Part shown: positions 25,750-39,751 of the stretch, one piece after another
Position numbering within the stretch: the stretch's first letter is position 1
Layout of the letters: every line of letters begins with the position of its first letter
Origin: Candidatus Bathyarchaeota archaeon
GTDB lineage: Archaea; Thermoproteota; Bathyarchaeia; 40CM-2-53-6
DNA length: 64,000 bases
Assembly (NCBI GenBank): GCA_963726255.1
Contig: CAVSBL010000002.1
Location: 1,056,001 to 1,120,000, forward strand
Direction: 5' to 3'
Program-made: the position numbers and the translations under genes
The notes under the pieces: generated by a model
Seen by the model: the letters and a program-made list of their open reading frames with translations, nothing else
What the model was told of the DNA's origin: nothing
Databases searched by the model: none

Positions 25750-26880
25750 TCACTCTAATACGTGGATGTTCTTCTTCGCGCACATGTCTTTCAGGATCTT
25801 TGGCCAGACAGTGACGCTAACTTCGCCCAAGTGCGCCTTCTTCAGTAGGAGCATGTAGGTTCGTGATTGCCCTATACCGCCCCCTATGCTGAGCGGCAGC
25901 TCGTTGTTTACGATGCCTCGGTGGTAGGGGAACTTCAGGAAATCCAACTGCCCGGTGATTTCCAGTTGCTTCTTGAGAGAGCTGGCGTTGACGCGGATGC
26001 CCATGGAGGTTAGTTCATGGCGGCGCCGTGTCACCGGATTCCAGACCAGAATGTCGCCGTTGAGGCCGTGCATTGTCCTACCGTCTTCGGACTTTGTTTC
26101 CGTAACCCAATCGTCGTAGTCGGCCGCCCTCATCTCATGTGGGTACCCATCCTTGAGTACCCAACCAATTCCAATTATGAAAATAGCTGGATACTTTTGG
26201 AGTATCGCTGTCTCACGCGCCTTGCGAGGCATGTCCGGGTACTTGTCGAGGATGTCTTCGGCGTGGAGAAAAGTGATTTCGTCTGGCAGGCTGGGATATT
26301 TCGAGGTTTGTAGCTGAGGAAAGAGCTTTTGCGCGTGGGTTTCAGCGCCTTTAAGGACCTTCCAAATTTTCCGAACGGTTTCCTTTAGGTAATCCAAGTT
26401 CCGCTGGTCTTCAGTTACCACTTTCTCCCAATCCCACTGGTCCACGTAGGCGCTATGGTCGTGGTCCAAGAAGTAGTCCTTGCGAACCGCACGCATGTCG
26501 GTGCAAATTCCTTCACCGACTCGAAGGCCGAATTGTCTCAACGCGACTCGTTTCCATTTAGTCGCAGCCTGCACTACTTGCGCATCGATCGGGTTCTTGT
26601 TATAATCGTTGGATATGTGAAATTGGATTGGGGTACGTGAGCCGTCTCGGTCGAGTAGGTCGTTGACTCCGCTTTCGGCGTCAACAATCAGCGGCACCTG
26701 TACCATCATTAGGTTGAGTTCTTTGCACAGGTTCTCCTCAATGTAGCCCTTGACAGCGAAGATAGCCTTCTGCGTGTCTTGCGGCGTCAGAAGGGAACTG
26801 TAATCACTTGGGAGAACCTTCTCAAGCTCATCATAACTACCGATGCCCGGCCCAGCCAAGTCCGCCTTCTTGCTAGACAT
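25750..26880 (-). CDS. asnA: Aspartate--ammonia ligase (asparagine synthetase A)
   Basis: KWKR, HSAYVDQWDWE, RAADYDDW, LNGDILVWN, SMGIRV, SIGGGIGQSR; start could be up to 26946. Confidence 0.93.
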   Translation of the reverse strand: MSSKKADLAGPGIGSYDELEKVLPSDYSSLLTPQDTQKAIFAVKGYIEENLCKELNLMMVQVPLIVDAESGVNDLLDRDGSRTPIQFHISNDYNKNPIDAQVVQAATKWKRVALRQFGLRVGEGICTDMRAVRKDYFLDHDHSAYVDQWDWEKVVTEDQRNLDYLKETVRKIWKVLKGAETHAQKLFPQLQTSKYPSLPDEITFLHAEDILDKYPDMPRKARETAILQKYPAIFIIGIGWVLKDGYPHEMRAADYDDWVTETKSEDGRTMHGLNGDILVWNPVTRRRHELTSMGIRVNASSLKKQLEITGQLDFLKFPYHRGIVNNELPLSIGGGIGQSRTYMLLLKKAHLGEVSVTVWPKILKDMCAKKNIHVLE

Positions 26881-27078
26881 TGCTCTCTTCGCTTTGGGAA
26901 AGAAAGTGTCCTTATTACGCATGCTTCTGCTTTCCACGACTGGCAAAATGGAAATTCACTTGTCAGGAGTGTGACACACCCAAACGTTGGGTGGGCACAC
27001 CCTACGTCGAAGCAGCTCCTAGCCTGTCACACGCGAAACAAGAGTAAGGTGTACTCGAGTCCTGCCCTCGTCTCCCGA

Positions 27079-28704
27079 TCATCTTGATGATCCAGTGACA
27101 GCCTTGGCTGTCATCGATGGTTTGTGAGGGGCATAGAAGATGCTGAGGACTGCCTTGAAGCCTACTGTTCGTATGATGTTTACTGAGAAGACGGCGTAAC
27201 CTGAGGCCAGGATGACTGCTCCGACGAGGGCTGCATTCATGTATGGTTCGAACGGCCCAAGGCCGTTTATGTAGAGCATCCTTCTTAGCATGCCCGCTAC
27301 TCCAGCGAGCCCCATGCTTAGACCCATCACAAGACCGCCAATCGTCCACAGAATCAGTTGCACATCCGCGAGACGTTCATTGAGTTGCTTACCTGTCAGC
27401 ATCGGGAACAGTGCATAGATGGCTGCAAAGATCGTGAGACCCAGGCCGATTAGGAGTTGTACATGTGCGTGAATTCCCACGATCCATTGAGTGTTATGGA
27501 AATATCGGTTAACCGCATAATTGGCTTGTATTATCCCAGCTGTACCGCCTATACCGTAACCCATGATGGAGACAAGAACATACTTCAGCGGAGCCGTGTA
27601 CTTGACCGGCCACGCCAACCACAGCGTCATTAGCACCGCGAATATTGTCAATCCCATTGTAACTAGTTCCCCCCATGTTACAATTTGACCCTCAACGAGA
27701 AGGCCCAGGGGTTGAGGCGTGTCAGCCATCATATGATGACCCCAAACTCCCATTGAGACCAAGAGATCTGCGAGAATCACTGACCTTACAACGTTCTCAC
27801 CGTATAGCTTCCGATTCAAGAGCAACGGAACTATGAGATACCATGTCGCGGCAGTGAACATCAGAACGTTCCCGTCGGCAATCATATCCAAACCCCACCA
27901 AAACACGTTCTTGTAGACCAGAGGATCAATCAGCGTTGGACTGAGAGCCATTGAGGGAACGAGATAGGCAATTCCGTAGATTGATAGTAGAACGCCCACT
28001 CCTCCCATGACCACTGCATTGATTGTAGTGTCAACACAGCCCCTGAATACGCCCACAACGAATACTGGAAAGGTGAAGACCTTACTTGTGTAGTCCGGCA
28101 CTCCACGAATCTTAGCTCTGAGCTTGTCTACGTTGAAAGCTGTGACAATCAATTCCCTAGCCACGAAGGCCGGCTTGGGCTGAGAGCTGACTTTCGGACG
28201 TAGTGGGAGAAAGATTGTTGCGAACATGTTGAAGAAGAACGCTAAGACGGCTGCGAAGATTAGGATCATACCTACCCCAAACGGAAGAATGCTTACGGGA
28301 TTCCACCCTACGGTTTTAACCGCGACGGGAAGCGGCCAATAGAGAGTGTAAAGCGGAGCATAATGCGTGATGAAAGTAGTTGTCCAAACCGTCATTACGC
28401 CCACGGTCATTAGAAGAAAGGAAGCGTTCGCAGTCTTCCTGCTGTAAATATCACGACCCAACACGTACGGAACAAGGAAGTAGAATGCCCCCATCACCGC
28501 CATGTAAGCGAACCCATAAATCAAGACGAACGGGTGCGCGGTCAACATGGCATAGAAATGTTGCGGGTCCAATCCTAGCAGGGGAAGGTCTATGTTATCA
28601 ACCCGACCTCGCATCATAACGCCTTCTATTCCACCAAGGCCTAGGAAAAGCAGAGAAACGACCACGAACCTTAGCGAGAGGATCTTCCGTTCATCCTCGT
28701 TCAA
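27079..28704 (-). CDS. Heme-copper oxidase superfamily subunit I, gNOR-like
   Basis: Helix II His (TAHP), WGHH and HAH heme ligands are present. The helix VI HPxVY motif is replaced by WWGLDMIADGNVL. Confidence 0.85.
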   Translation of the reverse strand: MNEDERKILSLRFVVVSLLFLGLGGIEGVMMRGRVDNIDLPLLGLDPQHFYAMLTAHPFVLIYGFAYMAVMGAFYFLVPYVLGRDIYSRKTANASFLLMTVGVMTVWTTTFITHYAPLYTLYWPLPVAVKTVGWNPVSILPFGVGMILIFAAVLAFFFNMFATIFLPLRPKVSSQPKPAFVARELIVTAFNVDKLRAKIRGVPDYTSKVFTFPVFVVGVFRGCVDTTINAVVMGGVGVLLSIYGIAYLVPSMALSPTLIDPLVYKNVFWWGLDMIADGNVLMFTAATWYLIVPLLLNRKLYGENVVRSVILADLLVSMGVWGHHMMADTPQPLGLLVEGQIVTWGELVTMGLTIFAVLMTLWLAWPVKYTAPLKYVLVSIMGYGIGGTAGIIQANYAVNRYFHNTQWIVGIHAHVQLLIGLGLTIFAAIYALFPMLTGKQLNERLADVQLILWTIGGLVMGLSMGLAGVAGMLRRMLYINGLGPFEPYMNAALVGAVILASGYAVFSVNIIRTVGFKAVLSIFYAPHKPSMTAKAVTGSSR

Positions 28705-28707
28705 AGC

Positions 28708-29289
28708 TTAACCCTCCACCTGGATAGCGTTTGGAACATACATCAACGGGTTTTGCGGACCACTGTACTCCGTTGACCGAACGTCATAGAATCCCGGCTC
28801 GTCGAAAACCCACCTCAGAGTATTCTTGTAGGGTTCTGGAACGACCTGCATTTGAAAAACCATAGTCCCATCCTTCCTAAAGACGCCGAACCCGTACGTC
28901 ACGTCATGGGAAACCACAACGAACTCAACGACCTTCCCAACGGGAATTGTGACCGGTTGCTGCGGCATGACGAAATGGTAATTGTCAACTTGAATAGTGA
29001 CCGTCATGACCGGAGTCGACTGCACCCATAACCCGTAGTCCGCGGAAGGGATCAGCGGAGAGAGCGTAACAAGGTTCCCCAGCAGAACCACAGCGAGGAG
29101 AAAGTACAGCCAATTGCGTTCACTCCCATGCATCCCACGATTAACATCAATCTCACGTGACCCTGCCTTCGAATCCGCATCGTGCCTCTTTGGTGCCTTT
29201 CGACTATAGACATAGAAGACTGAAACGAACGAAATAATTACGGCAATAAGCACGAGGTAGAAAATCTCAAAGGCATATTGCATGATCAA
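28708..29289 (-). CDS. Heme-copper oxidase subunit II-like cupredoxin lacking CuA ligands
   Basis: 2 TMs plus cupredoxin domain. SHDVTYGF and RSTEYSGPQNPLM replace the canonical DVxH and CxExCGxxHxxM motifs. Confidence 0.85.
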   Translation of the reverse strand: MIMQYAFEIFYLVLIAVIISFVSVFYVYSRKAPKRHDADSKAGSREIDVNRGMHGSERNWLYFLLAVVLLGNLVTLSPLIPSADYGLWVQSTPVMTVTIQVDNYHFVMPQQPVTIPVGKVVEFVVVSHDVTYGFGVFRKDGTMVFQMQVVPEPYKNTLRWVFDEPGFYDVRSTEYSGPQNPLMYVPNAIQVEG

Positions 29290-29476
29290 GGGCTATCGCC
29301 TTAAGAGCACCCAATAATCTGTGCCTGGAGCTGTTTGGCTTTTGGTCCTTACAGTAAAGACTCGTCACTACCAATTTCATTTGCCTTGGGCTACGGAACA
29401 AAGCATTTACAGACCCACGTCTTCTGAGTTTCAGTCAATAGCACGAAAACGTAGGACAGAGGAGAGACGACCGAAA

Positions 29477-29854
29477 TTGCCCCAAGAATCTGAATTGAGG
29501 ATCGGCTCCGTTGTTATTGATTGCATCAATTTCGACGAGATGTTGGCGTTCTGGCAGGAGGCGCTCCATTACGTTCCGAGAGAACCAGCTGAGGGCGGCT
29601 GGGTAGTTCTTCGGGACCCTGCTGGAAGAAACACGAATGTGTCTTTGAACCAGGTTTCAGTTTCAGAAAAACTCATGGGCAGAAACTGGCTACACTTCGA
29701 CCTCTACACCAACGACCAGAAGGGCGAGGTAGAGCGGCTGCTCAGGATAGGAGCTGCACGCCATCCGCAGACCTATGAACCTGATGATGATTTCATTGTC
29801 CTAGAAGACCCCGATGGCAACCTCTTCTGCGTGGTCGACATAAGCAAGCGTTGA
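29477..29854 (+). CDS. VOC family protein
   Basis: IGSVVIDC...FWQEAL, NWLHFDL, VLEDPDGNLFCV; start placed at TTG after GGAG. Confidence 0.85.
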   Translation: MPQESELRIGSVVIDCINFDEMLAFWQEALHYVPREPAEGGWVVLRDPAGRNTNVSLNQVSVSEKLMGRNWLHFDLYTNDQKGEVERLLRIGAARHPQTYEPDDDFIVLEDPDGNLFCVVDISKR

Positions 29855-29942
29855 CATTCTTAGATGCTCAGAAGCTCTTTTTCAAGGGTTCGAAAGCCTT
29901 CCAAAACCCAATCCTTGACGACAACTACAGCCAAATCCAGCC

Positions 29943-30899
29943 CTACTGAACTGTGAGGCTTCTGCCATTATGCTTCAGTGCCCGGAGCGCAAGATACGTG
30001 ATCATTTTCGATGGTTGCCCAGGCTTCTCTAGGTAGGGGTACCGGTTGTTTCCGTTCAGATTCCACCTACCATCTCGCCTTCGAGCGGAGATCAGCATGG
30101 AGAAAGCTTCCTGCATCCGATTGTCCGAGCCGTAACCCAGGCTGGTCATGAAATCTAAGCCGACAAGGTAGTCGTAGATGTAGTGCCAAGGATAATGGAG
30201 GGTCATCCAAGTTCGAGATGGCCGCCCCTCATGAATCAGCCGCCGCTTCAGAAAGAACCCGGCACCTCGTTCAATCGCCCTTCGAACGCGCGGGCTTCGC
30301 TCGTTCACAGGGACTTCCGCGAAGGCGCTCATGGCCTCCCATCCATCGATCGTCCCTCTCGGGCGCCCGAAACAATCCCAGCCCCCATCGGGCAACTGCT
30401 CATTCACCAGCCAGTTGATCGCGGACTGAACCCGTTCGTCTTTCAGGTAGCCAAACCGGATTAGCGACCGGACCATATTTCCGGTCATGCACAAGTGGCC
30501 TCTCCCCTTGTGGAGGGGATGGGACACAACGCCGCCGGAATATCCACCATCCTTCGCGAGGTGTAAGTCAAACCATAACTCTGTCGCGTTTGCGATTCTT
30601 TCATCTTTCCGGGTGAGGCCGAGGTCGGCCAGGACTTGCAGCTGCCAAATTGTTGACCTAAACTTCGGTCGATAGCACGTTTTCTTTGTGGCCCACCAGG
30701 TTTTCTCCCTCTGAAGGGAGAGAATGCGCGCGGCCCAACCCTTTTTCGGAATGGCTGATTGAAGCTCGGACAAAGTGCGTTTGCTGGGTCGAGGTCCCAA
30801 CAGGTCTCTCGCTGTAAGGTATCTAATTGAGGGTTCAGTAGACTCAAGCAACCAATCAATAACGCTACCACGGGACACTGTTTCAACCAATTGGCTCAC
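29943..30899 (-). CDS. Prenyltransferase/squalene-oxidase repeat (alpha/alpha barrel) protein
   Basis: IDWLLES.EPSIRY...RDLL, WLVNEQLPDGGWDC, YPWHY.YDYL, RRRDGRW, PSKMIT. Confidence 0.8.
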   Translation of the reverse strand: MSQLVETVSRGSVIDWLLESTEPSIRYLTARDLLGPRPSKRTLSELQSAIPKKGWAARILSLQREKTWWATKKTCYRPKFRSTIWQLQVLADLGLTRKDERIANATELWFDLHLAKDGGYSGGVVSHPLHKGRGHLCMTGNMVRSLIRFGYLKDERVQSAINWLVNEQLPDGGWDCFGRPRGTIDGWEAMSAFAEVPVNERSPRVRRAIERGAGFFLKRRLIHEGRPSRTWMTLHYPWHYIYDYLVGLDFMTSLGYGSDNRMQEAFSMLISARRRDGRWNLNGNNRYPYLEKPGQPSKMITYLALRALKHNGRSLTVQ

Positions 30900-30981
30900 C
30901 GGACTGCGGATTTGAGACTGCTATCCTAAAATAAGTGTGGATTAATGCGGCCCCACGCCAAAACGTTTCGAAGCCTCGAAT

Positions 30982-30998
30982 TGGTGGGCCCGGAGGGA
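30982..30998 (-). repeat. tRNA-Ile 3'-end copy (att-like site)
   Basis: tggtgggcccggaggga is identical to 37569-37585 of the intact tRNA. Confidence 0.85.
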
Positions 30999-31276
30999 CC
31001 CGCTGTCCGCGTGAGGGTGGTGGAACCCGTTTTTCTCCACCATTCATGTCTCGTCGAGGCGCACTACGTCCCCGTCGCGCTTGAGTTTTGCGCGTCGCTT
31101 CTTCACACTGTCGGACAATGTTGAGTTCAAATTGCGCTGCTCGCACCAGCTGACCCACACAAAGTAAACCGTCAGAAGCTTGACTCGTAACCAGTTGGAG
31201 ACTTCGTTGAGTAGGTTTTTTCTTCTGGCAAAATGTTAAATCTTTTGAAACAGCACGGAGATTGGAGGTGTATCGA

Positions 31277-31531
31277 TTGATTGTCATCACTCTGGCCAAG
31301 TTCAGGAGAAAACCGTCGAAAGAAGATGTTCCGAAGCTGCCGCAGTACGTTCAAGGAGTGGGTGGTAAGGTTCTATCTGCATATTGGACGTTAGGGCGAT
31401 ACGACGCCGTCGTAACCATTGAAGCTGCAGATGAGAAAGCCGCCTTGAAGGCGCTATTGCAATTTGGAGATTTCGTTGCGACGGAAACGTTAGTTGCAAT
31501 TCCGCGTGATGAAGCGGCAAAATTGCTGTAG
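31277..31531 (+). CDS. GYD domain protein
   Basis: GGKVLSAYWTLGRYDAVV..EAAD, TETLVA; RBS GGAGGTG. Confidence 0.85.
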   Translation: MIVITLAKFRRKPSKEDVPKLPQYVQGVGGKVLSAYWTLGRYDAVVTIEAADEKAALKALLQFGDFVATETLVAIPRDEAAKLL

Positions 31532-31628
31532 CCGGTATGCTTCGCGGTACGGGAAGCTGCCTGGAAGTTATCTTCTCCATTTTTCATGTTGGGCCTCCGT
31601 TGAGCTTGGAGGTTTCTGGTTGTTACGC

Positions 31629-31760
31629 AGAGAACACGCACTCCGGCGGCTCGTCCGGACCGCTATTGCCTACAACCGTTCCAAGTTGAAGGGCAAGGAA
31701 GCCCCCGGACCGGCCAAGAAGCCGTCCCGTCCCTCGGCGCGAGGGAAGAAGGGGCCCTGA
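31629..31760 (+). pseudogene. C-terminal fragment resembling DUF1801/YdhG-like proteins
   Basis: EHALRRLVRTAIAYNRSKLK with a basic tail; high-GC patch with no N-terminus. Confidence 0.4.
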
Positions 31761-31970
31761 GGGACACGTCCGCTGCGACGGTCTAGTGCCGCAATATGGC
31801 ATGCAAAGAGCTCGCATGAGACAGACATGTCAAGGGACGACGAGAAGAAGATGGCAAAGCCTGCGTAGAAGACTTATTTCAATTACTTTGGAAAAGTTCT
31901 TTCAATGCAGATCGGCAAGTAGTTTCCGCCGTCTCAAGGCGTGCAAAAAGTGGCATCGAACCCGACGATA

Positions 31971-32015
31971 TGGTGGGCCCGGAGGGATTTGAGCCCACGA
32001 ATATCGTGGGTTCGA
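31971..32015 (-). repeat. tRNA 3'-end copy with T-arm followed by a palindrome
   Basis: tggtgggcccggagggatttgagcccacga-atat-cgtgggttcga. Confidence 0.8.
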
Positions 32016-32062
32016 GCCGCATCTCCAATCGGGCCGCGCCACGATTCACTTCACTTCTCCTT

Positions 32063-32134
32063 GGGGCTTTTGCTGAGTATGTATGTGTTCCTGTGGATGC
32101 GCTAGCTCTGAAGCCGGCCAATCTATCGTTCGAG
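32063..32134 (+). pseudogene. 24-codon fragment of an NAD(P)-dependent MDR/quinone-oxidoreductase-type alcohol dehydrogenase
   Basis: GAFAEYVCVPVDALALKPANLSFE is a hallmark MDR segment; flanks are unrelated. Confidence 0.7.
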
Positions 32135-32182
32135 GGGGGGCTGATTTTTCAATTGCCTTCTTTGCGTGAAGAAACTCCAAAT

Positions 32183-33004
32183 TCAACGAAACATGGCGCT
32201 TATCTCCTTGGGGCTGGCAGCGTCAGCCGCGAACGAGAAAGTTCCATGCTCTCGCATTTCGCGAGCAGCACGAAGAAAAGCGCCGAGGGCGGTACGGTAA
32301 AGTGCGCTTCCGACGCTAATTCGTTTGACCCCTACGGCTGAGAGCTCTGCTAAGCTTAGTCGAACTCCCTGTAATCCCATTACAACGTTGACCGGTCGCT
32401 TTACACAGTTAACGACGGCTACAATTTCATCTTTAGTCCGCAAACCTGGAGCATACAAGACATCCGCGCCAGCTTTTTCATAAGATTGCAGTCGTTTTAT
32501 CGTGTCTGTAAGGTCTGGCCGACCGTGCCAATAGTTCTCAGCACGGGCTGTCAGAGTAAAAGGAAAAGGAAGTGCACGCGCCGCGGCTACAGCTGCCTTG
32601 ACTCTCTCTGTTGCAAGTTCTATTTCATAGATCGGGCGGTCTGGGTGTCCGGTTGCGTCTTCGATTGAACCGCCGACTATCCCGGAGGCCGCGGCACATC
32701 TGATTGTTTCCGCTACAGCTTCTGGCGAGTCGCCAAATCCATTCTCAAGATCGGCACTGACGGGCAAATTAGTCGCAGAGGCAATAGCAGACGCATATCC
32801 TAATGTGGCTTGGAGGCCAAGCGTGTTGTCTCTCCGCCCTTGAGAAAAGGCGTATCCCATACTGGTGGTGGCCAGTGCCTCAAAACCCATATGCGCTAGC
32901 AAACGGGCACTACCCACATCCCACGGATTCGGGATGATGAAGGCGCCGTCTCGCTCATGGAGAGCTCTAAAGGCTCGTCCCTTCTCGACCTGTGTGCTCT
33001 TCAT
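32183..33004 (-). CDS. Isocitrate lyase/PEP mutase family protein
   Basis: FIIPNPWDVGSA, ALATTS, PVSADLENGFG, SIED, LTARAEN, GADVLYAPG, RISVGSAL. Confidence 0.93.
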   Translation of the reverse strand: MKSTQVEKGRAFRALHERDGAFIIPNPWDVGSARLLAHMGFEALATTSMGYAFSQGRRDNTLGLQATLGYASAIASATNLPVSADLENGFGDSPEAVAETIRCAAASGIVGGSIEDATGHPDRPIYEIELATERVKAAVAAARALPFPFTLTARAENYWHGRPDLTDTIKRLQSYEKAGADVLYAPGLRTKDEIVAVVNCVKRPVNVVMGLQGVRLSLAELSAVGVKRISVGSALYRTALGAFLRAAREMREHGTFSFAADAASPKEISAMFR

Positions 33005-33139
33005 TTGGTTAGTTGCCTCCATCGGCATCCACATTCCCTAATGCAATACAAGAAGATTCAGGCGTAGGTAAAAGCAATAGTGTTCGTGCCTCAAGACGCG
33101 GAAGAATGACCGGCTACGAACTATCGAGCCCACGAAAAC

Positions 33140-33240
33140 GGTGGGGCCGGTGGGATTCGAACCCTCAATTTCTAGCCTTCAACGCAATAGGTGCGTGTCG
33201 TGGGGCCCTTGGGATTTGAACCCCCCATATGGTGGGTTTA
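33140..33240 (-). repeat. Two tandem degenerate tRNA 3'-end copies
   Basis: ggtggggccggtgggattcgaaccctc (33140) and gtggggcccttgggatttgaaccc-cccatatggtgggttt (33200). Confidence 0.75.
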
Positions 33241-33249
33241 TTTTACAGT

Positions 33250-33690
33250 CTAGAACTGCTCGTCGACTTTGCGGTACTCCCTCCGCAGGAAGTCAATCTC
33301 TCGCGACAACATGTCTCTAACATGATCCTCTCGCCTAACTGCATGCCTAAGCATGAAATCAACTGCCCGCTGCGAAACGCCAGTCTTCATGCAGGTCGTG
33401 TGGAAATAATCCCTCAGGTCATGCCACCGAAGACTCGCCGCGCGAACCGCCTTCTCAGCTTCCCTGAACCCTGCTCCGTGACCACCGGCGACTCAGCTCG
33501 TGGACGCGGAGAACGAGACTTCAAATCTTCCAGCAACCATTCGCATCCTCGCGACGACAGAAACGTACAGTACTTTATGACAGCAGCCCGCCGATTTCTG
33601 ACACCCAGAAGCTGAATCCGAGAAGGCACCTCCAAGAAACGCCTCTTCGCGAGCGATAACTCTACGAGGTTCCGAAAAAGGAGCTTGTTG
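33250..33690 (-). pseudogene. Decayed tyrosine recombinase/integrase C-terminal remnant (not in ORF track)
   Basis: Manual translation ...KYCTFLSSRG... / frameshift / LRWHDLRDYFHTTCMKTGVSQRAVDFMLRH...FLRREYRKVDEQF*. HxLR box II is present, the GH is degenerate and the catalytic Tyr is not evident. Confidence 0.75.
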
Positions 33691-33877
33691 ATTTGCCCTG
33701 GCCAACCCAACCCAGAAAAAGTCGCCAACCCGACCGCCACTTTAGCGCCCAATATTGGACGGGGTTTCCTCTCCGAGACGAGTTGTCCGCAACCCGCGCC
33801 AGGCGCTTGCCCCGTCCAGAACAATTACCGTTCCAGACACCCAAATATCGTTACCGGACTCGCGCAGCCAGTTTGGG

Positions 33878-34042
33878 TGGTGGGCCCGGAGGGACTCATC
33901 ACCCTCGGAGAGTGGCGGTTGGGTTACCGCTTTCTCCCTTCTTCGCATAATGTTACCGTGCAGGCATATTAGCGAATGTCGCGGATAAGTTTTGTTTCCC
34001 GAAATGTGATCCTGCGCTTCCAGAAAGGTGGTGGGGCCGGTG
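33878..34042. repeat. 142-bp direct repeat copy 1 (33887-34028) bracketed by tRNA 3'-end copies
   Basis: About 12 differences from 37423-37564; tggtgggcccggaggga at 33878 and tggtggggccggtg at 34029. Confidence 0.92.
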
Positions 34043-34245
34043 TACACTTGACTATGTGCAGATCATCAAGCACGTGCTAATTTGACGGAGCCTGACCTAC
34101 GTCGAGTTTTGAAGACAGTTTCAAGCATCTCCAAACGCTTCGAGACACCCTAGCAAACGAAACTCAAGGATGGGGTAGGGGATTCTGACCCCAATTACTG
34201 GTACATATAACCTCGGCCTGCGTTACATTTGTGAGTGACTTGTCA

Positions 34246-34407
34246 TTGGTTACAGAAATCAAATATCAAAATAAAACTGTCTATTCATGTGAAATCTGCA
34301 AGTTAGGATATGCAGACAGACGAACCGCTAATGATTGCGAAAACTTCTGTAAAACCCACGGCGCCTGCTCACTAGAGATAACCAAAAACGCAGTCCACAA
34401 ACCGTGA
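34246..34407 (+). CDS. Small Cys/His-rich putative zinc-finger protein, 53 aa (not in ORF track)
   Basis: MVTEIKYQNKTVYSCEICKLGYADRRTANDCENFCKTHGACSLEITKNAVHKP*; TATA-like CATATAA at ~34204. Confidence 0.75.
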   Translation: MVTEIKYQNKTVYSCEICKLGYADRRTANDCENFCKTHGACSLEITKNAVHKP

Positions 34408-34481
34408 GCCAACTAGCCAGCAGACGAAAAGTAACAGTCTCCAGCGGCTGACGAGAAGGTACCGTTACCGAAAGTTGATTA

Positions 34482-34826
34482 TTACATGTCCTTGATGTGT
34501 TTCGTAATGCCCATGTAGCCAGTGATCTCGTTCTCTTTCTTCAAGGGCCGAACCGTCAGCAATCCTCGGAACCTACTTCCATTCTTTCTTACGAGCGTAA
34601 CCTCTTCCTCAAACTTCCCTGTCTCCGCCGCGGTCTTCAAGAGTCGAGGGACGAGCGTCTGAACCGCTTCAGGCTCGTGAAAGATCACGACGCTCTGTTT
34701 GCCTACGACTTCGTCCTCAGTCCAGCCAAAGAGCTGCTGGGCCCCGAGACCGTACGATGTAATTATCCCCTTCAAATCGCACGCTATTCCAGAATGGGAA
34801 GTATCTTCGGTCTTTGACATTACCAT
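34482..34826 (-). CDS. Stand-alone PAS domain protein
   Basis: IACDLKGIITSY..GAQQLFGWTEDEVVGK, RKNGSRF, GYMGIT. Confidence 0.85.
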   Translation of the reverse strand: MVMSKTEDTSHSGIACDLKGIITSYGLGAQQLFGWTEDEVVGKQSVVIFHEPEAVQTLVPRLLKTAAETGKFEEEVTLVRKNGSRFRGLLTVRPLKKENEITGYMGITKHIKDM

Positions 34827-34963
34827 TCACCGCTGCGGCATAATCGATATTGTCCCTTGTCTTTGGCTGTCACGTGATCCGTGGAATGAGCTTGCCTGAA
34901 ATTTAAGCCATACGTCATACATTCAGCATAGGATGGGGCGGGACATTTGATGGAATGAGGAGT

Positions 34964-35248
34964 TCATTCTGGTCGACGGGGGCTCAGTGGTCTCGTGTGG
35001 AAGGCAATCTCCCAGATCAGCATGGCTTGGTTGAAGCATTGCCTATGCAGAGTGCCTTGCATTGCTTCTCCCAAATCCCAGTTGGGTGACGTGAATCCAA
35101 CCCTCTTTGCGCATTCAATCATTCTAGGATTCTTATGAGTAATCTGTAATCTCATCACGCTGGGTTTTCCTTGGATGACCTTTTTGCAGGAGACGCAATA
35201 CACCTTGGATTTCACTTTGGTCTTCTGGCGTTTTTCTCTCCTAGGCAT
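34964..35248 (-). CDS. Hypothetical basic protein with CxxC...HxxC
   Basis: YCVSCKKVI...LHRQCF; RBS GGAGGTG; follows the hemerythrin gene. Confidence 0.6.
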   Translation of the reverse strand: MPRREKRQKTKVKSKVYCVSCKKVIQGKPSVMRLQITHKNPRMIECAKRVGFTSPNWDLGEAMQGTLHRQCFNQAMLIWEIAFHTRPLSPRRPE

Positions 35249-35250
35249 CT

Positions 35251-35832
35251 TCAGACACCTCCTTTTCTGTTGATGTTGAATGATTTCTCAAGTTTCGCTA
35301 CCATCTGCTCGTATTTGTTATGGAAATCTGAACCGAATCTCGTCTCGACTTCATTGAAATTCCTTGTGAGGCCTGCTAGCTCTGGTTTGGGTAGAACTTT
35401 CTCGGTCATCGGGAAGAGAAGGTAGTCTTCTCTCCAAATGTGATCCGTGTACAAATCCATGGCACCTTTGATTGTCGCAGAGATCGTGACCTTTGCCGTT
35501 GAATCGCCGCTGGCGTATTTCTCGATCGCATCGTTCAGAGCGGTCATAAGCGCTCTCCCCTGTTTGTGCTCGCTTGTGAGTGTGCCTATTGGGCATCCCT
35601 GCGGACGGACTCCATTCCTTTCCAGCGTCGGGAAAAGACCGTCTTCTTCTTTTGCGTGATGAGCCTTGTCGGCAAAAGTTCGGAAGAAATCTACGATCTC
35701 CGTCAATATTGCAGCATCAATATCTCCGCCACTTTCAAGACGTTTATGCATAGCGGTGAGTACGTTAACCATTCGCAGGATTACTTTGTGCTCTTCCTCC
35801 AACACCTGGATAGCGGACGACGCAGAATTCAC
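35251..35832 (-). CDS. Hemerythrin HHE cation-binding domain protein
   Basis: LEEEH, HHAKEEDGLFP, EHKQGR, HIWREDYLLFP. Confidence 0.92.
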   Translation of the reverse strand: MNSASSAIQVLEEEHKVILRMVNVLTAMHKRLESGGDIDAAILTEIVDFFRTFADKAHHAKEEDGLFPTLERNGVRPQGCPIGTLTSEHKQGRALMTALNDAIEKYASGDSTAKVTISATIKGAMDLYTDHIWREDYLLFPMTEKVLPKPELAGLTRNFNEVETRFGSDFHNKYEQMVAKLEKSFNINRKGGV

Positions 35833-36191
35833 CGTGGCTGCGTCGGCGCTGCTGTGAACGTCTTGAGCTTCTGCCGAAGTGCACCAAAATCGCTCTTGGT
35901 TGAAAATTGGTTGTCCTCAGTCATCATGCCGCCCTCAACGGGACAATACTCAAGAGCATAGGTTGAAGCGGCTATGAGGAATTCAAGGTCTTCATTGTTC
36001 ACGTCCAGCCTATTAACGGGCTGAACTGCAACAGCCTGAAGTTTCTTGCGTAATGTCTCGAACGATATCTTGGTCGAGAAGTGTCCTGCCTCGGTCATTA
36101 TTCCTCCCTCAACTGGACAATTCTCAAGGGCGTAAGCGACGTTCGCCTTAGCCAACCTCAACTCCTTGTCGGTTAGCTCTATTCCCGTCAT
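35829..36191 (-). CDS. Hypothetical protein made of two internal repeats (YALExCPVEGGxMTE)
   Basis: YALENCPVEGGIMTEAGHFSTK / YALEYCPVEGGMMTEDNQFSTK; GTGA overlap with the hemerythrin gene. Confidence 0.75.
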   Translation of the reverse strand: MTGIELTDKELRLAKANVAYALENCPVEGGIMTEAGHFSTKISFETLRKKLQAVAVQPVNRLDVNNEDLEFLIAASTYALEYCPVEGGMMTEDNQFSTKSDFGALRQKLKTFTAAPTQPR

Positions 36192-36307
36192 TTTCGTCTC
36201 ACACGACTATCATCTTGGCGAGTCAACTATAAGGGGTGACCCCTAACATGTTTGGGTGAGCATGATAATCAAAAGCGTTAACTGAATCAGGCAAGTTAGT
36301 CGGTCAT

Positions 36308-36436
36308 ATGTCAACGCAGACTTGCCCAAAATGTGGACAGCCAGTCCGATACGTCCAGGGACGAATGTACTGCGTAAATTGCGACAAAACAGCGTATGAA
36401 GCGACGAAAACTGGTCACTCTCATGAAACGAAATAG
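36308..36436 (+). CDS. Zinc-ribbon micro-protein, 42 aa (not in ORF track)
   Basis: MSTQTCPKCGQPVRYVQGRMYCVNCDKTAYEATKTGHSHETK*. Confidence 0.65.
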   Translation: MSTQTCPKCGQPVRYVQGRMYCVNCDKTAYEATKTGHSHETK

Positions 36437-36472
36437 GAACGGCAACTAGATCCTAGAAGTGGTCTCACCACT

Positions 36473-36934
36473 TCACACTGACGGCTTTGAATCGTTCTTC
36501 CGTATCCCTTGGTGCGTCTGCAAAGCCCAGGGAAAGATGCGTTTTTCTTCGGCCTCAAAATGCGAACGAACCAGGTTGTCGAATTCGGAGGGTATTGATC
36601 CAAGTTCTTCAGGCGAGTTCATAGCCTTCTTCGAAATTGTATCAGCCAGTTTATGCATCGTTCGATGCTGCTGGAACACCTTGATGGCACCATTCGCCCC
36701 TTTTCGCCCATACGTATCGATGAAAAGTTTCAGCAATACATTCTCTTCGTCAACAATGTGTTGAACGGTTGAGTTGTCAAATTCTCTTGCCAGTTCGGCT
36801 CCTCTCGCATAGTCTTTCTTCTCCAAAACGTCGGTAAGCTCTGACAAGCGTTTTCTCTGTTCCTGATGCTCTTGGGAGAGGAGCGCAATGAGTTCCTCAA
36901 GTTCGAGTGGGCGAGCGACGATTCTCGAGGACAA
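36473..36934 (-). CDS. Hemerythrin HHE domain protein
   Basis: LSQEH, QHIVDEE, QQHR, HFEAEEKRIFP. Confidence 0.85.
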   Translation of the reverse strand: MSSRIVARPLELEELIALLSQEHQEQRKRLSELTDVLEKKDYARGAELAREFDNSTVQHIVDEENVLLKLFIDTYGRKGANGAIKVFQQHRTMHKLADTISKKAMNSPEELGSIPSEFDNLVRSHFEAEEKRIFPWALQTHQGIRKNDSKPSV

Positions 36935-36943
36935 AGTCTCCGC

Positions 36944-37288
36944 TTACCTCGATTTTACCATAATCAGAATCATCTTGAACTTAGTGACCGCTTTGAGTGC
37001 ATGTGTTTTGTTGGGAGGCATTATGATCATCTCGCCTTCACTCAAGTGGAACATTTCACCGGAAATCTTGATGTCTACCTGACCCTCTATGACAATGACC
37101 AATGCGGCGTAGGGTGCTGTATGCTCACTCAATCCCTCGCCCTCATCAAAGGCAAAGGCTGTAACAGTACCTCCTTCTTCACCCACTAGAGTCCTGCTCA
37201 CAACTGCTCCGCTTTGGTAAGCAGTCAGATCTTTGAGCTTCATGACTTGTGCGACGACCGTTTTTGAGTTAGTCAATTCAAAACGCAC
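36944..37288 (-). CDS. Cupin domain protein
   Basis: YQSGAVVSRTL, AFDEGEGLSEHTAPYAA, MPPNKTHALKA..KFKMIL. Confidence 0.92.
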   Translation of the reverse strand: MRFELTNSKTVVAQVMKLKDLTAYQSGAVVSRTLVGEEGGTVTAFAFDEGEGLSEHTAPYAALVIVIEGQVDIKISGEMFHLSEGEMIIMPPNKTHALKAVTKFKMILIMVKSR

Positions 37289-37422
37289 CTCCTAATGCTT
37301 CCTAAGAGTATTCCGGGTTCCTCAATTAGTGTATTTGGTGGGATTTGACTCCCCTGACCTTGATTCGGCGAACGTCGGATGATTATCAGGCTGCTAACTT
37401 TTCTCGTCAGACAACATATTCT

Positions 37423-37564
37423 CGGAGGGACTCATCACCCTCAGAGAGTGGCGGTTGGGTTACCGCTTTCTCTCTTCTTCGCATAATGTTACCGTGCAGG
37501 CATATTAGTGAATGTCGCGAATAAGTTTTGCTTCCAGAAACCTAACCTTGCGCATCCAGAAAGG
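37423..37564. repeat. 142-bp direct repeat copy 2, adjacent to the tRNA-Ile 3' end
   Basis: Aligns without gaps to 33887-34028. Confidence 0.92.
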
Positions 37565-37568
37565 AAAG

Positions 37569-37675
37569 TGGTGGGCCCGGAGGGATTCGAACCCTCGACC
37601 AGCAGGTTCCTCCGCTATGCATATGAGCTTCGACTTTCAGTGTCTGTCGCTCTAGCCTAGCTGAGCTACGGGCCC
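37569..37675 (-). tRNA. tRNA-Ile(CAT) (Ile2-type) with two introns: 30/31 (37629-37643) and 37/38 (37608-37621)
   Basis: Mature GGGCCCGTAGCTCAGCTAGGCTAGAGCGACAG|GCTCATA|ACCTGCTGGTCGAGGGTTCGAATCCCTCCGGGCCCACCA. The GGGCCC acceptor stem indicates Ile rather than Met. BHB central helix CGAC/GTCG at intron 1. Confidence 0.88.
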
Positions 37676-37941
37676 TTATTCTTTTAGTGACTTTAGGGGA
37701 CATTTCAGGATTAGGGTTCGAGTTTGGCAAACGTCAGGCGCCGACTGAACGTGTAGCTTAGAGCATTCGAAGGGTTCTACAGCCCCCAAGAGCTTCGGCT
37801 GGCTCTACATTAGAGCCCTCGCTAACACGCCACTCTCAAAGCATGAGCTCGCAAGGATCGCTTCGCTCCTCCTCCGCCGCTAATAGCCACGGAATAACCA
37901 TAATACCAGATTCCTCACGAAAGAGGGCCAGTGATTAAGCA

Positions 37942-38316
37942 GTGGATACCGACAAATTCGTAGAGGAAGTCTTCAAGAAAGACGGTCGGATTCGCTACGT
38001 AGGAATCGTTGATAGGGAGTTTCACGTCCTTGTCTCAAAGATGAGGGAGGGAGTTCAGAGTCTCACTCCCGACGAGAGCGACCGTAACTTTGTTCAATTG
38101 ATGCCCTCGATCATTCTCGACTCGGTCGAAAAGCTCTCGCCCTTTCTGGGTGTTGTTGAGTCCGTGACTATCAGATACGCGAAGGTGTTTCTAGTACTCT
38201 TCACTAAGGGCAGTTACGTGATTGTACTAAGCTTCAACCCAGACATTCAGAGGCCATTCATGAGCGCTCTGACAGAGTGGATGCAATCGCTAGCTTCCAT
38301 GTACCTATCCGAATAG
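37942..38316 (+). CDS. Roadblock/profilin-like fold hypothetical protein (archaeal)
   Basis: DGRIRYVGIVD...MREGV..L, LG.VESVTIRYAKV pattern. Confidence 0.7.
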   Translation: MDTDKFVEEVFKKDGRIRYVGIVDREFHVLVSKMREGVQSLTPDESDRNFVQLMPSIILDSVEKLSPFLGVVESVTIRYAKVFLVLFTKGSYVIVLSFNPDIQRPFMSALTEWMQSLASMYLSE

Positions 38317-39560: not shown

Positions 39561-39710
39561 TGGTGCTCCGGGCGGGATTTTCAGCGATTGAACCATCGCA
39601 TTCGAACCCGCGTCGCTGACTCTCTCCGCAAACTCGAGAGGCCAGCATACTCTCGGCGACATACGCCTTGACCGGGCTATACTCGGTAGCTGAACCGCTT
39701 CTACCGGAGC
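39561..39710 (-). tRNA. tRNA-Glu(CTC) with four introns: 10/11 (39682-39700), 20/21 (39652-39668), 37/38 (39622-39634), 59/60 (39578-39600)
   Basis: Removing 19+17+13+23 nt gives the canonical 78-nt GCTCCGGTAG|TATAGCCCGGTCA|AGTATGCTGGCCTCTCG|AGTCAGCGACGCGGGTTCGAA|TCCCGCCCGGAGCACCA. Each junction forms a BHB-type motif. Confidence 0.9.
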
Positions 39711-39751
39711 CCCAACTAACCCGGAGCAATTGGACTAACGCTGTCCCACGG

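Follow-up and report, generated by a model that had tools for sequence, protein, structure and literature searches.

A dense stack of tRNA-tail attachment scars behind a tRNA(CAU) gene in a bathyarchaeal genome, with serial integration and integrase decay as its favoured origin

How does a stretch of archaeal chromosome come to hold a series of copies of tRNA 3' ends, all pointing the same way and separated by very short gene modules? tRNA genes are classic landing pads for mobile DNA, and in most cases described so far one or two elements are seen there, each bringing its integrase with it. The locus that we consider here lies in a stretch of 64,000 nucleotides (“the window”) from a Candidatus Bathyarchaeota archaeon (GenBank assembly GCA_963726255.1, contig CAVSBL010000002.1, positions 1,056,001 to 1,120,000), where an island behind an intact tRNA(CAU) gene is divided by tail copies that we call attachment (att) sites A to H. 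An earlier description, made from the letters alone (the original prediction), saw in this island an integron-like array of small modules captured repeatedly at tRNA-derived sites. We find that the locus is not an integron and favour, with a probability of about 0.7, the view that the 3' end of tRNA(CAU) is a hot spot for integration, where elements with tyrosine recombinases integrated serially (accretion) and their integrases then decayed.

The source assembly has 2,424,021 bases, with an estimated completeness of 98.5% and contamination of 9.3%, and the contig carrying the window is 2.36 Mb long. Positions refer to the window unless preceded by C2, which denotes coordinates on the main contig of the studied genome (G000). 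G001 to G022 are relatives from the same genus and L-numbers are fetched loci. The locus was also compared with contigs of four public metagenome runs, X1, X2, X3 and X5 (the last a marsh metagenome), which are assembler output rather than raw reads. Coordinates of the features are collected in Table 1.

The target gene was recognised by Rfam (RF00005, 48 bits against a cut-off of 29). Default ARAGORN reported no tRNA in the window because the gene holds introns; its intron mode returned a poor “Gln” model, which we rejected, and brute-force removal of introns was ambiguous (5,586 of 26,642 variants were called tRNA) and was replaced by conservation among relatives. The gene was matched in 21 of the 22 genus genomes, 17 of them with at least 96 of its 107 bases at 86-95% identity. 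Two stretches that vary among these copies are read as introns, one of about 15 nt at position 30/31 and one of 14 nt at 37/38, and their removal gives the loop CTCATAA with the anticodon CAT. The original prediction had named the gene tRNA-Ile. It is indeed an intact tRNA, but the Ile identity is possible only, as the anticodon would fit either an elongator Met or an Ile2 tRNA.

The tail of this tRNA recurs along the island. The 17-mer TGGTGGGCCCGGAGGGA, read on the + strand of the window, is found exactly at 30982, 31971, 33878 and 37569 and with three mismatches at 33139; at 37569 it is the reverse complement of the minus-strand tRNA 3' end, including the encoded CCA. These five matches compare with 0.15 expected, and 0 of 100 shuffles reached five or more. 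Genome-wide, the exact 17-mer occurs at four places, all at this locus. Every tail copy from A to H has the orientation of tRNA(CAU), and the co-oriented copies described in the original prediction are therefore genuine.

The “different tRNA” that had been invoked for some of the copies is also real. It is the long-intron tRNA at C2:979121-979301, whose 3' 17-mer has 10 genome copies at no more than one mismatch; we refer to its tails as the second type. Two sites in the window combine both types. In att B, 17-20 nt of the tRNA(CAU) end are followed by the second-type T arm and then by a palindrome (8-nt arms, 7-nt AT-rich spacer). att C has the converse composition, and the two are reciprocal chimeras of the two tRNA types. 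The palindrome was found at six genome sites compared to none in five shuffles; a tRNA-like tail is adjacent to five of the six, an intact 499-aa integrase gene (described below) lies beside one of them, and att B alone among the sites in the window carries it in full. An argument from covariation of the palindrome arm with the T stem was dropped, since three cases fit and G014 fails. The T-arm-like motif that precedes att A (30960-30981) was found adjoining tRNA(CAU) itself in G004 and G007. At fragment G (34165-34200), contigs of X2 show loose ends on both sides.

The closest relatives indicate where the inserted DNA begins and ends. A conserved flank gene, here called gene X (96% identity in G021 and 86% in G013 by tblastn), lies 50 nt from the tRNA in G021 (L002) and 95 nt in L005; G013 is arranged alike, and G017 is similar with one additional open reading frame (ORF). 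G021 is the nearest relative, with 96.3-96.5% DNA identity on both flanks. Because gene X abuts the tRNA in the closest relatives, the 10.6 kb from 26957 to 37568 are inserted DNA. The variable region is larger than the extent first proposed (30982-37675), and in view of the arrangement in G021 and G013 its start lies near 26957.

On the tRNA side the insertion has a sharp edge. Contigs of all four metagenome runs meet unlike sequence exactly at 37568/37569, and one X2 contig has the empty site of G021 type. The thermosome gene follows 5' of the tRNA in all 10 loci of relatives, and in the closer ones SUI1 does so as well. On the other side, just 2 of 19 island proteins were matched, weakly, in the 3' flanks of 10 relatives, and the content behind tRNA(CAU) differs in all 10 loci examined. 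Two single-gene modules of about 1.1 kb, one with a protease and one with a 273-aa ORF, are extra in G014 compared to G015. They lie between the tRNA and an att scar, and the flank that the two genomes share stops at att. The comparison of related metagenome-assembled genomes (MAGs), which had been suggested as a check, therefore gave differing content with breaks exactly at the tRNA end and, in this pair, at att. The data support several independent events and not one provirus.

Remains of a recombinase lie within the array. The pseudogene that adjoins att E matched PF00589 at E = 0.081 and the family hidden Markov model (HMM) at 3.1e-10, and tblastn aligned it to a paralogue at C2:2000954 with 50% identity over 96 aa (9e-21). 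The last two values establish the integrase remnant of the original prediction. The intact homologue that was to be looked for was also found: a 499-aa paralogue is encoded at C2:1967990-1969486 (L018:5991-7490), 62 nt from an att copy of the same type at C2:1967912. For the 499-aa protein, Pfam-A gave no match at E<=0.05 but PHROG_1 “integrase” gave one (4.6e-6); relatives of the protein are annotated with PF00589, and columns of the R...H-x-x-R...Y type are conserved across 13 aligned homologues. It belongs to a recombinase family that escapes domain scans. A 379-aa member touches an att copy at C2:266772, and fragments of the family lie near other att copies.

The same association is seen in other archaea. 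At 8 of 14 homologue loci from named MAGs (Nitrososphaerales, Thaumarchaeota, Bathyarchaeia and Archaeoglobales), a complete tRNA T arm and acceptor lie 77-94 nt upstream, and in one of the eight (L023) the same two-intron tRNA(CAU) stands directly upstream of the integrase homologue. Stop-to-stop frames pass through att both in the window and at C2:1967912. A split integrase of the Sulfolobus spindle-shaped virus (SSV) type was considered and judged unlikely, since the ORF beginning 62 nt past att is covered to 99-100% by homologues of 494-496 aa.

One module has a history separate from that of the chromosome. The hemerythrin-cupin block (34964-37296) is 93.5% identical to a different contig of G021 (C16), 92.7% to G014 (C9) and 88.6% to G022 (C175), compared to core DNA identities to the studied genome of 96.4% for G021 and about 80-82% for G014. 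Given this pattern, the block was not simply inherited with the chromosome. In G014 it lies between 82-nt direct repeats bearing a second-type att and the palindrome, in G022 two copies of second-type att plus palindrome stand beside it, and in the window it has H to one side and F, at a greater distance, to the other. Neither Pfam nor the family HMM found an integrase match in the block. It is a discrete integrase-less module, and other species have it at different loci with att on its flanks. Between att B and att C, the 1.1-kb module likewise has no integrase, its sole gene being the phosphoenolpyruvate (PEP) mutase, and an X5 contig is 99.4% identical over that gene (32158-33038). Three joints in X5 contigs (33164 to 37656, 32017 to 32158 and 36617 to 37575) hinted at a PEP mutase module beside a tRNA elsewhere; their sides of 20-27 letters were too short, and we discounted them.

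The part of the island nearest the tRNA is framed by two repeats, D1a and D1b, which are 3,536 nt apart. They align without gaps over 142 nt at 92% identity and, with the att ends included, over 169 columns with 144 identities and one 4-nt gap. A single X2 contig (depth 6.4) joins 37473 to 33938, which is the junction of a 3,536-bp circle or of a tandem unit, and it spans a 35-nt exact repeat. This joint, the identity pattern of the hemerythrin-cupin block and the recurrence of dense arrays speak for the idea that integrase-less modules may still move by means of an integrase supplied in trans.

We propose the following origin for the stack. Small elements with a divergent tyrosine recombinase would recombine their own site (attP), a mimic of the last 17-28 nt of the tRNA flanked by T-arm-like inverted motifs, with the tRNA tail. 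Each integration would restore the tRNA and shift the older tail copy outward, which would leave co-oriented scars with the oldest presumably farthest from the tRNA. Elements specific for the second tRNA, whose tail is near-identical, would also have entered and produced the hybrid copies. As the integrase genes decayed, a stack of att-bounded, integrase-less modules of 0.06-3.5 kb with cell-type genes would remain, an archaeal counterpart of the bacterial cis-mobilizable elements (CIMEs) formed by accretion. As in tRNA-targeting elements, direct repeats of the tRNA 3' end bound the insert, one of them inside the intact tRNA, and the insert is missing in close relatives, with the breakpoint at att on the tRNA side and between G014 and G015. 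As in CIMEs, both att sites are kept around DNA that holds neither integrase nor transfer genes (the B-C module and the hemerythrin-cupin block). As in accretion, copies A to H are co-oriented, and B and C are chimeric.

Table 1. Features of the island behind tRNA(CAU) and its borders, in window coordinates
Feature	Position	Strand	Basis or remark
Gene X, conserved flank gene	25753-26946	-	Abuts tRNA 3' end in G021 and G013
Outermost inserted block	26957-30981		Pfam; absent between gene X and tRNA in G021 and G013
COX1 (haem-copper oxidase subunit I), outermost block	27079-28704		Pfam
193-aa ORF, outermost block			Listed between COX1 and glyoxalase
Glyoxalase, outermost block	29321-29854		Pfam
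Prenyltransferase/SQHop-like gene, outermost block	29943-30899		Pfam
att A, bare exact 17 nt	30982-30998	-	Preceded by T-arm-like motif 30960-30981
GYD module, between att A and att B	30999-31970		Pfam and comparison with G001
GYD gene	31262-31531	+	Pfam, 2.7e-13
att B, hybrid plus palindrome	31971-32013	-	Sequence comparison
PEP mutase/isocitrate-lyase-family gene	32183-33034	-	PF13714, 1.8e-76, profile 1-239 of 240, full-length
att C, reciprocal hybrid	33139-33166	-	Second-type acceptor part plus tRNA(CAU) T arm
att D, third tRNA-like 3' end, then 7-nt start of a further copy	33200-33237	-	Sequence comparison
Tyrosine-recombinase pseudogene	33253-33824	-	Catalytic half only, two frames, frameshift near 33490; adjoins att E
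att E, exact 17 nt, bare	33878-33894	-	Sequence match
Repeat D1a, about 155 nt	33887-34040		From mid att E to mid att F
att F, 14 nt of second tRNA type	34027-34040	Co-oriented with tRNA(CAU)	Sequence match
Fragment G, degenerate T-arm-like	34165-34200	-	93.5% over 31 nt to C2:149879-149909
Zn-ribbon gene	34231-34407	+	Pfam
PAS gene	34482-34826	-	Pfam
Hemerythrin-cupin block, six genes	34964-37296	-	94-aa, hemerythrin, 120-aa, Zn ribbon (+), hemerythrin, cupin
att fragment H, second type with internal 9-nt gap	37337-37356	-	41 nt from hemerythrin-cupin block
Repeat D1b	37423-37580		Starts with last 8 nt of att, ends in tRNA(CAU) 3' end
Intact tRNA(CAU), two introns, encoded CCA, attachment target	37569-37675	-	Rfam, conservation

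Several observations weigh against this origin, at least for parts of the island. Its left edge near 26957 has no clear att, with one doubtful att-like string at most. The COX1 block, GYD and PAS match relatives at att-free loci (for the PAS gene on its own, the match is to G004:C44 at 88% identity, away from any att) and may be ordinary chromosomal DNA that arrived by other routes. In G014 the tRNA and gene X are 49 kb apart and att copies are confined to the first 2.3 kb; some of the variation here is therefore not att-bounded. The D1 repeats, at about 155 nt, exceed a site-specific core, which suggests homologous recombination or a long attP of the newest insertion. Genome scans with PF00589 and PF16795 gave no match in G000, so that the integrase call rests on the PHROG match, the family HMM and annotated relatives. 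Lastly, there is no intact integrase in the window, and present activity at the locus is unproven.

Arrays of this kind are not confined to the window. A search of other tRNA loci, which had been proposed as a check, found similar arrays, for example at C2:459.6-472.8 kb. This second, larger stack (C2:458412-472847, L020) lies behind another tRNA. Its eight copies, which are tail- or T-arm-like, of mixed type and all co-oriented, extend over 13 kb, and the stack contains an integrase fragment (C2:471491-471817). In public metagenomes, the exact 23-nt palindrome was found in 67 contig stretches, in which 104 att-like copies were co-oriented with the palindrome and 3 were opposite, compared to 2 in a reversed-sequence null. 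At least two att copies were present in 26 of the 67 loci and at least three in 14, with a median spacing of 1,045 nt. The family HMM matched integrases in 7 of the 67, all of them fragments of at most 196 aa, and PF00589 was found in 1 of 49 ORFs from six of the loci. Among the cargo was a citrate transporter, with att copies 1.59 kb apart on either side of it. These 67 loci were selected by motif, are short and include near-identical contigs from several samples, so that the counts overstate independence. We also considered co-orientation of the first gene as a cassette signature and rejected it: the first gene behind orphan att copies was co-oriented in 13 and opposite in 8 (n = 21), which does not differ from the 23 and 13 behind full tRNAs (n = 36).

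Could these data reflect a cassette system rather than the debris of serial integration? An integron-like archaeal system, in which integrase-less modules of 1-3 kb with a tRNA-tail mimic and palindrome are excised as circles and reinserted by an integrase encoded elsewhere, would account for several findings. Most modules are integrase-less, and in three genomes one of them is found as a conserved, att-flanked unit; single genes lie between att copies in G014 and, as the citrate transporter, in a metagenome locus; and the metagenome loci combine a strong bias of att orientation and frequent arrays with few integrase fragments. The X2 joint is the junction expected of a circle. However, that lone contig spans an exact repeat, so that it could stem from a tandem copy or from the path taken by the assembler. 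The metagenome loci, for their part, are short, partly redundant and motif-chosen, and integrase remnants lie inside arrays as decay predicts. Furthermore, there is no array-linked integrase and no attI-like head, genes lie on both strands, orphan att copies show no orientation bias, and the integron integrase (TIGR02249) had 0 matches at E<=0.01 in this 98.5%-complete genome. We consider such a system quite unlikely. In the absence of IntI and of orientation bias, with genes on both strands, with att sites derived from tRNA and with integrase remnants in the arrays, the locus is not an integron. The original prediction therefore stands as regards att scars of tyrosine-recombinase integration, several events and mixed tRNA specificities, while membership among integrons falls away for want of IntI, of an intact integrase at the array, of a uniform gene orientation and of an orientation bias at orphan att copies. 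A related idea is archaeal gene shuffling without an integron, where integrase-less modules of 1-3 kb with the tRNA-tail mimic, the palindrome and iterated GGGTTC motifs would be exchanged between arrays and species by a Pfam-silent tyrosine recombinase encoded elsewhere, their sites doubling as rearrangement breakpoints. We regard this as rather unlikely; a cassette-like trade in integrase-less modules is possible.

Another possibility is that att-att recombination between tRNA loci, by inversion or translocation, has brought ordinary segments behind the tRNA, so that some “modules” were never mobile. The flank behind the tRNA in G004 (C13, L001) matches C2:475-485 kb of G000 with up to 97% aa identity, just beyond the second att array on the other strand, and gene X of G004 (C24, L037) has a second-type att and palindrome 2.5 kb away at a contig end. 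Likewise, the Pst operon and a P-type ATPase stand behind tRNA(CAU) in G001 and, in the same order, behind another tRNA (C2:198091) in G000. Hybrid sites such as B and C are expected from recombination of two tRNA loci, and there is precedent in the Thermococcales, as far as the available part of PMC5495485 describes it. On the other hand, the G004 contigs stop short of the junctions, and the integrase remnant, the small size of the modules and the att-flanked block at 93% identity across species are left unexplained. As an account of the stack this is improbable; rearrangement between att arrays at different tRNA genes may be a further contributor. An artefact, whether from chance, from local duplication of parts of tRNAs or from mis-assembly of the MAG, might be suspected from the contamination estimate of 9.3%, from the degenerate copies G and H and from the mis-joins that such repeats invite. 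Chance is excluded by the shuffles, the contig is 2.36 Mb long, the same kind of array is present in relatives, and contigs of X1 and X2 with 0-1 differences cross att A (29596-31516 and 30113-31460), C and D (32676-33618), F and G (33943-34674) and the tRNA junction (37479-38220); among the matches listed, none crosses B, E or H. We consider an artefact very improbable. Serial integration at tRNA(CAU) followed by integrase decay is the reading that we retain.

Two observations concern the large-scale arrangement. Comparison of G004 with G000 suggests an inversion of about 620 kb whose breakpoints lie within the two tRNA arrays. In G000, C2:186846-195688 is the counterpart of the G001:C2 region (L008) with the Pst phosphate-transport operon, the PhoU genes and the P-type ATPase, and in G001 an att copy sets the ATPase apart.

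As for the cargo of the island, Pfam confirmed the module contents given in the original prediction (GYD, PEP_mutase, Zn ribbons, PAS, two hemerythrins and cupin). Its “ADH scrap” and “DUF1801-like scrap” found no Pfam match at E<=10 and no paralogue in the genome, and we do not retain them. Island genes lie on both strands. In G021, the COX1 part of the outermost block (27079-29289) has an 88% identical match on a separate contig of 3.7 kb, compared to 96.4% for core DNA, and this respiratory gene may belong to strain-specific variable DNA. The first 110 nt or so of the GYD module match an att-adjacent element end in G001 (L008 1865-1991, 80% over 127 nt). Within the same module, a motif of about 50 nt (31110-31171) has at least 10 genome copies on both strands, among them C2:249618, 913259, 120665, 1775489, 449631 and 1250222, and is also present in relatives. 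Twice an att copy was found about 112 nt away from it, and its core (31125-31160) has unlike sequence on either side in metagenome contigs. The motif could be a small RNA or an element end.

Introns were found in nearly all tRNA genes of G000. Between SUI1 and the thermosome gene lies a tRNA-like gene (39561-39715, - strand) that both ARAGORN and the Rfam scan missed; its acceptor halves pair, its 3' 17-mer is identical to that of the tRNA at C2:1298092, and its T arm is apparently split by an insert of about 21 nt, with further inserts upstream. Some ARAGORN “introns” of 1-2.8 kb (e.g. C2:458412-459602 and 667336-670229) seem to pair the 5' part of a tRNA with a distant orphan tail, as judged from the 458412 case, which is the one that was compared with att positions. 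The practical caution is that orphan tRNA tails mislead tRNA finders in intron-rich archaeal genomes.

How does this locus compare with known systems? In the available portions of Krupovic et al. 2019 (PMC6563490), thaumarchaeal elements have att sites with a median of 17 bp, target tRNA 3' ends including those of intron-bearing tRNAs, and form arrays through re-use of sites. Our locus resembles these integrated mobile genetic elements (iMGEs) and cryptic integrated elements (CIEs) in its integration at the 3'-distal part of a tRNA, short att (17-20 nt here), divergent tyrosine recombinases, metabolic and stress cargo and site re-use arrays. It differs in that the elements in those portions of PMC6563490 are integrase-defined, the smallest being 2.6 kb with an integrase, whereas here nearly all units are integrase-less and eight scars, two tRNA specificities and hybrid att are found in 6.6 kb. 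The bacterial model, as laid out in the sections at hand of PMC5704250, runs from integration through decay to a CIME and on to accretion, with chimeric att sites. Like those CIMEs, the units described here keep attL and attR, have lost integration genes, admit arrivals at the gene-end att, show chimeric internal att and capture genes. The CIMEs in those sections are bacterial, have conjugative helpers and usually comprise one or two decayed elements; here the host is archaeal, the stack is far denser and no transfer machinery is known. With integrons, as far as the accessible text on archaeal MAGs (10.1101/2022.02.06.479319) describes them, the locus shares small gene units, dyad-symmetric recombination sites and a tyrosine recombinase. 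Unlike integrons, it has no IntI, no attI/Pc (cassette promoter) head, tRNA-tail mimics instead of attC, mixed orientation and integrase remnants within. The tmRNA islands of Dehalococcoides reportedly carry their own integrases. According to the available part of PMC3146451, that system is bacterial and similar in its repeated insertion at the 3' end of a small RNA and in its strain-specific metabolic genes. Our literature search found no account, for these archaea, of tRNA-tail arrays that are as dense as this and mostly lack integrases, supplementary element tables lying outside that search. The locus is a known route of gene collection behind a tRNA, here in an unusually dense and mostly integrase-less form.

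The stacks described here, from an uncultured archaeon of sediments and from its relatives, are dense and co-oriented, and their very small integrase-less units carry everyday metabolic and stress genes such as PEP mutase, hemerythrins, a protease and transporters. To our knowledge, no conjugation or virus vectors are known for these archaea. If the units are still traded via a shared integrase, this would be a cheap route of gene flow among them, and it would account for the fact that these genomes are least stable in the DNA behind tRNA genes.

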